The translations under genes and the position numbers were made by a program. The notes beneath the pieces were generated by a model, which did no database searches, was not told the origin of the DNA, and saw only the letters and a program-made list of their open reading frames with translations. This document shows, one piece after another, positions 12,678-13,496 of a stretch of DNA of 64,000 nucleotides; within the stretch, counting starts at the first letter, position 1; each line of letters starts with the position of its first letter. Source of the DNA: Eledone cirrhosa (lineage: Eukaryota); the NCBI GenBank assembly GCA_964016885.1, contig OZ024740.1:309442001-309506000 (forward strand), given 5' to 3'.

Positions 12678-13496
12678 TTTAGGTATGATACATTTTATTA
12701 CTAATTATATCTAAATGTTCCTTCTCTCTTCATAATGTATTTTTAACTCTGATACTGGTTCAGTCTGGTTCAACCGGATTGGTCTGTCCCAGTCATTCAT
12801 TGAGCAACATCGGTAAGGTTGGCACCATTAACTCACGGTTGGATGTGGATGCATTCATGTATATGTGTGTGTCCGCATGTATCTGTGTGTTTCTAAATAT
12901 ATTGTTCATAACTCCCTCTGGTCGAGTAATCTTTGAAGTGTGGTGACTGCTGGAAAGCTGCCATTACTCATACTTCTCTCCCCCTTTACCACCTCTTCTA
13001 CGGCTTCGATATAAATACCCCCTCCGCCTCCGTGGTATTTTCTTCGGGGTTATAAGAGGCTTAGCTCTGTTTCTCGACCGTTATATCGCGTGACTATCTC
13101 CCCCTCCGCCTTTTGGGATTCTTTCTCACGTCGTGTAGACGCGTTCTTGAAGCTAGTAAAATGAGGTATCCTCTTGATAAGTCGGCAGACCTCGTAAGGG
13201 CTCTATATCTTTATGATGTACTGTTTTTGTTTATGCCACGAAACTACGTAGTCGAGGAATCTAGGAGCAGTTTAGGTATGATACATTTTATTACTAATTA
13301 TATCTAAATGTTCCTTCTCTCTTCATAATGTATTTTTAACTCTGATACTGGTTCAGTCTGGTTCAACCGGATTGGTCTGTCCCAGTCATTCATTGAGCAA
13401 CATCGGTAAGGTTGGCACCATTAACTCACGGTTGGATGTGGATGCATTCATGTATATGTGTGTGTCCGCATGTATCTGTGTGTTTCTAAATATATT
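12678..13496 (+). mobile_element. Terminally redundant 593-nt monomer element (226-bp direct repeats) in (TA)n
   Basis: 12678-12903 is repeated at 13271-13496. TA tracts on both sides and one hammerhead inside. Confidence 0.85.
13169..13258 (+). ncRNA. Type-I hammerhead motif, U3-A8 core variant
   Basis: TCCTC-TTGATAA-GTCGGCA...TGCCAC-GAAA-CTACGTAG-TC-GAGGA. Palindromic stem III ACTACGTAGT; GUC triplet. Confidence 0.7.

Follow-up and report, generated by a model that had tools for sequence, protein, structure and literature searches.

A 1.38-unit insert with a predicted U3-A8 hammerhead between TA tracts of the Eledone cirrhosa genome

A 64,000 nt stretch of Eledone cirrhosa DNA (contig OZ024740.1), referred to here as the window, carries an insert at positions 12678–13496 that consists of 1.38 units of a 593 nt repeat and displays a predicted type I hammerhead with U3 and A8 in place of C3 and G8. 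On balance the insert appears to be a copy of a non-coding, non-autonomous retroelement derived from Penelope, of the non-LTR retrozyme type, with predicted hammerhead cleavage. It likely represents a family new to an already known class of mobile elements that bear ribozymes. Hammerhead-bearing retroelements of this kind are covered in a review (PMC6765202).

The maximal exact repeat in the insert is 226 nt long at an offset of 593 nt (repeats A and A′, Table 1). This bears out the claim in an earlier note on this DNA of a 593 nt monomer with 226 bp of identical redundancy; the outermost base at either end of the repeat might belong to the adjoining TA tracts. The left end is situated at the base of a predicted extended stem I, a position that suits equally a circle and a linear RNA whose 5′ end was produced by the ribozyme. 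TA tracts are touched by all four ends of the two long copies, the insert and its diverged relative, which amounts to two insertion events and not four; such tracts, together with 10 nt on either side, make up 3.9% of the window. A target-site duplication of unique DNA was considered and rejected, as the joint between A and the body is an ordinary family junction.

Table 1. Features of the insert, related fragments and SINE-like copies in the window
Feature	Positions	Strand	Remarks
(TA)49 tract	12580–12677	.	left junction; presumed target microsatellite
Repeat A, 226 nt	12678–12903	+	start equivalent to 17 nt downstream (3′) of the predicted cleavage site
Unrepeated body, pyrimidine-rich, predicted hairpin series	12904–13168	+	homologous to 31860–32130
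Type I hammerhead motif (predicted)	13169–13258	+	stem I 13169–13173/13254–13258; predicted cut 13253|13254 after GUC
Core, U3 (13174) and A8 (13179) replacing C3 and G8	13174–13180	+	dominant family form
Stem II	from 13181/13239	+	bulged C13183, long extension; span 59 nt
Palindromic stem III, 10 nt	13243–13252	+	predicted dimerisation site
AU-rich tail, 29% GC	13254–13333	+	13333 is the (TA)n-abutting end of other family copies
Repeat A′	13271–13496	+	identical to A, including family-rare letters; 13495 likewise an end on (TA)n in other copies
(TA)8 tract	13496–13511	.	right junction
Fourth, older, inverted fragment without hammerhead	14211–14415	-	probable; E 8e-5, near the microsatellite background of 1e-4
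Third family fragment, tail and next segment, collinear	30995–31103	+	left end beside (TA)11
Diverged relative	31815–32290	+	70% of aligned columns; TA tracts flank both sides; hammerhead 32133–32227
SINE-like copies	4517, 7506, 8763, 19969, 22150, 33062
SINE-like copies	40370, 43053, 46054, 48929, 51788, 58361

The core letters of the motif read U3 U4 G5 A6 U7 A8 A9, followed by G10.1-C11.1 at 13181/13239, GAAA at 13240–13243, U13252 and C17 at 13253. Thus the motif shows a Watson-Crick 3-8 pair (U3-A8), G12 A13 A14, the A15.1-U16.1 pair and H17, as found in type I cores. Judged by core and covariation, 13169–13258 is a hammerhead, the only one in the insert, and cleavage is predicted. A relaxed type I descriptor gives four matches in the window, where 30 block-wise dinucleotide shuffles average 1.0; with a palindromic stem III of at least 6 nt there is one match, the motif of the insert, and none in each of the 30 shuffles. 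Rfam shows no hammerhead family for a 501 nt slice (E ≤ 10) or across the whole window (E ≤ 1), the likely reasons being the core variant and the length of stem II, and its other output consists of microsatellite-driven or weak miRNA-type matches only. The statement that standard searches miss the family thus holds for Rfam, but a descriptor that accepts U3-A8 has been in use since 2014 (PMC4209133).

The core variant itself is not novel, since U3-A8 is already in print. Several naturally occurring hammerheads have C3/G8 covarying to U3/A8, and in vitro activity is cited for ribozymes of this form (Perreault et al., 2011, PMC3088659). The core covariation is identical to that seen here, but the published examples are few and scattered, whereas here U3/A8 predominates in a single, abundant repeat family of an animal. 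U3-A8 is also present in Schistosoma Penelope motifs, with about 1,300 matches (Cervera and De la Pena, 2014, PMC4209133). Nothing on U3-A8 activity was found in the available part of PMC7151607.

The insert resembles the U3-A8 hammerheads of Schistosoma mansoni Cercyon in its type I topology, U3-A8 pair, short stem I and G10.1-C11.1, and further resembles Cercyon and Penelope motifs in a dimer-suited palindromic stem III, an AU-rich 3′ flank and mostly single, dispersed motifs. The bulge within helix II is like that of the Drosophila virilis motif. Penelope type I hammerheads with a palindromic helix III are described as functioning as dimers, with low activity in vitro. The palindromic 15.2–16.2 with loop 3 that marks the minimal Penelope hammerhead is present here as the 10 nt palindrome, but, unlike in the Penelope motifs, there is no extra unpaired base between 9 and 10.1; A9 (13180) directly adjoins G10.1 (13181). 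The insert also differs from the published motifs in its full 10 nt palindrome, as against a minimal helix III, in the 59 nt span of its stem II and in showing no adjoining reverse transcriptase-endonuclease frame (all comparisons with PMC4209133).

The repeat family to which the insert belongs is very abundant. Four (X1, X4, X7 and X21) of 23 listed public sequencing runs were compared with 12904–13496 at 80% likeness. In X1, 1,426 contigs out of 16.3 million match; X4 has 40 matching contigs out of 0.76 million, X7 has 14 out of 23.6 million, and X21 has 3,497 RAD reads out of 12.5 million, the RAD reads possibly deriving from few loci. The summed depth of X1 is not taken for copy number or for a truncation profile. 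Run X7, the only one used of the small shares in organisms B–Q, bears another organism label, and its 14 records show one form at a depth of 10–13 that may come from a relative or from stray DNA; it serves only for reading the dominant family form.

Two contigs of the dominant form cover the core. X4 record 14 (13043–13212, depth 163) shows five differences from the insert and X7 record 18 (13016–13199) shows four, all of them explained by rows 13047, 13151, 13152, 13195 and 13200; none is at the core, which reads U3/A8 in both. No difference at 13174 or 13179 is present among the 40 rows listed of 138 (the other 98 could include minority variants), nor is a C3-G8 member seen among the family records listed. 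As the dominant contigs of two runs carry U3/A8, this core is not a product of decay in the 12678–13496 copy. The earlier note had named a CUGANGA family consensus, with private mutations in this copy, as the result that would speak against its reading, and these contigs display the opposite. Its reading of U3-A8 as selected rather than decayed agrees with published work in so far as the variant is tolerated and functional there, but the diverged relative is U3/C8 and the sequences compared do not show covariation within the family.

The relative, aligned with 12860–13338, shows 311 identical columns of 443 and scores 169, where 200 shuffles reach 52 at most. It ends close to the equivalent of 13333. 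Twelve helix pairs were compared, anchored on the core (stem I pairs 1–5, stem II pairs 1–2 and five palindrome pairs). All 12 are retained, six unchanged, five with two-sided changes and one with a one-sided change, in a comparison of two sequences only; neither of them pairs at position six of stem I. These compensated stems are good support, from two sequences, for the predicted hammerhead fold. The relative that had been noted at 32133–32227, with U3 and a different palindromic stem III, is real and longer than claimed, but position 8 is a C that forms no pair with U3. In addition, two extra bases between GAA and the palindrome place the latter out of register with A15.1. On account of U3/C8 and the 2 nt insertion the hammerhead of the relative has likely decayed, and it offers no 3-8 covariation.

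Two smaller fragments are found in the window. The one at about 30995–31103 matches the tail of the relative at 32 of 37 positions (E = 1e-6). Its next segment is equalled by none of 5,000 shuffles and by one other non-self tile of the window, at the 14.4 kb fragment. That fragment (14211–14415) is a probable family member by sequence likeness, with a pairwise score of 43 that is not above shuffles (maximum 45).

Folding predictions for the monomer place the hammerhead 1.8 kcal/mol above the minimum, in which the core pairs with loop II, and give stem I pair probabilities of 0.17. When the family-majority letters are set at 13195 and 13200, the extension of stem II gains two Watson-Crick pairs in place of wobbles and four stem II pairs go up from 0.11 to 0.93, but stem I declines to 0.01 and the gap widens to 3.6–4.3 kcal/mol. 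The palindrome forms no hairpin alone; its self-duplex has a predicted −12.9 kcal/mol. In a linker model, a double hammerhead at −60.5 kcal/mol is favoured by 8.7 over two separate monomers (−51.8) and lies 2.3 kcal/mol above the unconstrained pair fold (−62.8). All 100 shuffles of the 593 nt monomer fold less well than the monomer itself (z = −3.67), and the 98 nt motif on its own shows no advantage over shuffles (z = −0.55). The insert has a single hammerhead and would be cleaved inefficiently if no second RNA provided a partner for it.

The sequestering of the core by competing folds, together with the lost 3-8 pair of the relative, could mean that the hammerhead is a dead relic, with U3-A8 fixed by drift in a source copy and spread without cleavage. 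Naiad elements, which like most Chlamys have no canonical hammerheads, do spread without them (PMC8557442). However, the two core changes together restore the 3-8 pair, the stems are compensated, and U3/A8 ribozymes have been cited as active (PMC3088659), so that a dead relic is given almost no credence.

The head-to-tail arrangement of the unit is not limited to the insert. The joint 13496 to 12904/12908 is found in all four runs; X7 record 17, for example, passes from 13268–13496 into 12908–13045. Dominant contigs cover nearly the whole unit head to tail, and after about 590 nt the dominant form leads back to its own beginning, except for a gap in X7 at 13200–13231. Among the listed pieces none spans the unit and none carries two hammerheads; tandem donors are suggested by the overlap of short contigs. 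A contig of a more diverged subfamily (X4 record 12) joins 13487 to 12989 with different letters between, and suggests a second head-to-tail form.

In other copies of the family (TA)n comes directly after 13333, as in five X1 contigs and 212 X21 reads, or after 13495, as in seven X1 contigs, three X4 contigs and 292 X21 reads. The internal sequence around either position is TA-like, suggestive of microhomology-based priming. Partial tandems, direct terminal repeats and a bias for microsatellite targets are features that the insert shares with Penelope-like elements, for which partial tandems, frequent 5′ truncation and a (TA)n bias are described (Craig et al., 2021, PMC8557442). As in non-autonomous Penelope-like elements that have pLTRs, MRC1 of Chlamydomonas among them, and in the (TA)n-targeting clades Naiad and Neptune, a partial tandem results in direct terminal repeats, and insertion is in a microsatellite without clear target duplication. 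Octopus Naiads also favour (TA)n and are described as long inactive (same source).

The unit displays what is expected of a retrozyme: it is non-coding, has a GC content under 50%, carries a predicted type I hammerhead and falls in the range of about 50–1000 nt. With one hammerhead in 1.38 units, the locus lacks the two hammerheads of an active retrozyme copy. Metazoan non-LTR retrozymes (Cervera and De la Pena, 2020, PMC7229834; Li et al., 2026, preprint 10.64898/2026.07.22.740005) are likewise non-coding, with one type I hammerhead and GC below 50%. They share with the family head-to-tail junctions, many solo copies and a proposed Penelope-driven mobility, and their lengths of 51–972 bp, as given in the preprint, include that of the unit. 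The preprint relates them to pLTRs, and of its predicted retrozyme dimers one of nine was active and eight of nine remained uncut. The family differs from them in length (593 nt against a typical ~300), in its non-canonical core and in strict (TA)n junctions.

Alternatively, the insert could be a pLTR, the end portion of an autonomous Penelope-like element, the copies being 5′-truncated 3′ ends in partial tandem that are made from a linear transcript, without an independent 593 nt RNA. Published accounts of such elements mention partial tandems, pLTR hammerheads, (TA)n as a target and frequent truncation at the 5′ side (PMC8557442; 10.64898/2026.07.22.740005), a published consensus likewise has an AU-rich tail (PMC4209133), and the 3′ ends on (TA)n recur at 13333 and 13495. 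A longer element is at variance, however, with the self-closure of the dominant contigs, and among 20 loose ends listed of 183 there is no deep, shared entry into other sequence, save microsatellite-like or mixed tails. A coding remnant is also missing: Pfam gives no match of note in the six read-through frames of the element, with no family near the cut-off. A terminal part of a longer element is the main alternative, though an unlikely one. A four-codon likeness among three fragments was rejected as a coding remnant because it is too short.

No autonomous Penelope-like open reading frame (reverse transcriptase with GIY-YIG) is found within the element or beside it in the window, and none of the seven window open reading frames of at least 150 aa, three of them scanned with Pfam, is a Penelope reverse transcriptase or GIY-YIG frame. 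The reverse transcriptase frames that are present look LINE-like rather than Penelope. At 60820–63064 (+) there is part of a LINE-type ORF2, open for 592 aa, with Pfam RVT_1 and zf-RVT at 61286–63064. Broken reverse transcriptase frames are situated directly to the left of the TA tract at 11300–12560 (-), and from their motifs these are presumably of LINE type as well. A metagenome scan with an 18 nt core pattern gave seven loci, all seven being unrelated short matches, and a viral scan with a 23 nt pattern gave no matches. No title or abstract start in the literature searched on hammerheads with octopus or cephalopods describes the family, the search leaving most subscription papers and repeat databases outside its scope.

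Repeats A and A′ show no differences in 226 nt (95% bound 1.3%). The insert as a whole departs from 93–100% of the X1 depth at 13151, 13152, 13195 and 13200, and A and A′ have in common letters missing from 88–99% of the X1 depth at 13313, 13408, 13410, 13436 and 13439, as expected of one template read twice. The unrepeated part carries four private changes in 170 nt. If these dated from after the insertion, A and A′ should differ at about 10.6 sites, with a probability of 2e-5 for none; thus the private changes predate the duplication. They may be explained by a diverged template read more than once, by later equalisation or by an assembly effect. The insertion had been called recent, which fits the young duplication, but the private changes are older than it, and later homogenisation or an assembly effect could also account for the identity.

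Later equalisation is central to another explanation, in which the element is as described and A and A′ owe their 226 nt identity either to assembly polishing or to a DNA duplication or conversion that took place between the TA tracts at a later time; the identity would then be uninformative on an RNA template. The missing differences between A and A′ agree with it, and the exact locus was found in no run (best share 0.63). A diverged donor accounts for the same numbers, however, the A-to-body junction is normal for the family in all four runs, and 13495 is a recurrent end, which makes a later DNA-level origin improbable.

For the preferred reading, a Penelope-derived retroelement of the retrozyme type, the following route is proposed. 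A donor carrying two units would be transcribed, and the two hammerheads would pair through the 10 nt palindrome and cut after C13253. The 593 nt monomer would then be circularised, or re-read through template jumping. The Penelope-like endonuclease of an assumed partner would nick a (TA)n tract, which could prime cDNA at a UA-rich internal spot, 13333 or 13495, and synthesis past one full unit would give a permuted copy with identical ends. A model leading from a circle to more than one unit, and the idea of RNA-to-RNA steps, appear in PMC4209133. Carried further, the family might be a viroid-like RNA circle that is copied from RNA to RNA within the cell and only then returned to the genome; private changes would arise in the RNA phase and hence be common to both repeats, and the dimer-dependent U3-A8 hammerhead would keep the circle closed until multimers form. 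Such a circle is regarded as very improbable. If active, the hammerhead would belong to an animal family of high copy number and recent mobility that normally has a U3-A8 core and is invisible to Rfam. The permuted copies of more than one unit, with their microsatellite junctions, would provide a test set for the unproven model of hammerhead circles as templates of Penelope-like reverse transcriptases.

An unrelated second repeat adjoins both long copies, at 13512–13700 and 31368–31633. At 31.4–31.6 kb this repeat takes the form of a large inverted repeat, with a hairpin at 31487–31569, that is 85–88% like 13512–13685 in both orientations. A 911 aa open frame at 16212–18947 (-) contains nine chitin-binding peritrophin-A stretches (PF01607), and this gene may contain the hammerhead element or be close to it. 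A SINE-like family is represented in the 64 kb by at least 12 copies of 82–98% identity, and this family presumably resembles an octopod SINE. Two other inverted repeats are flanked by TA tracts. At 49670–50516 there is a perfect 237 nt inverted repeat with arms 373 nt apart and a nested one of 94 nt, and at 1457–2108 a MITE-like inverted repeat of 232 nt, 93% complementary, with arms 188 nt apart.
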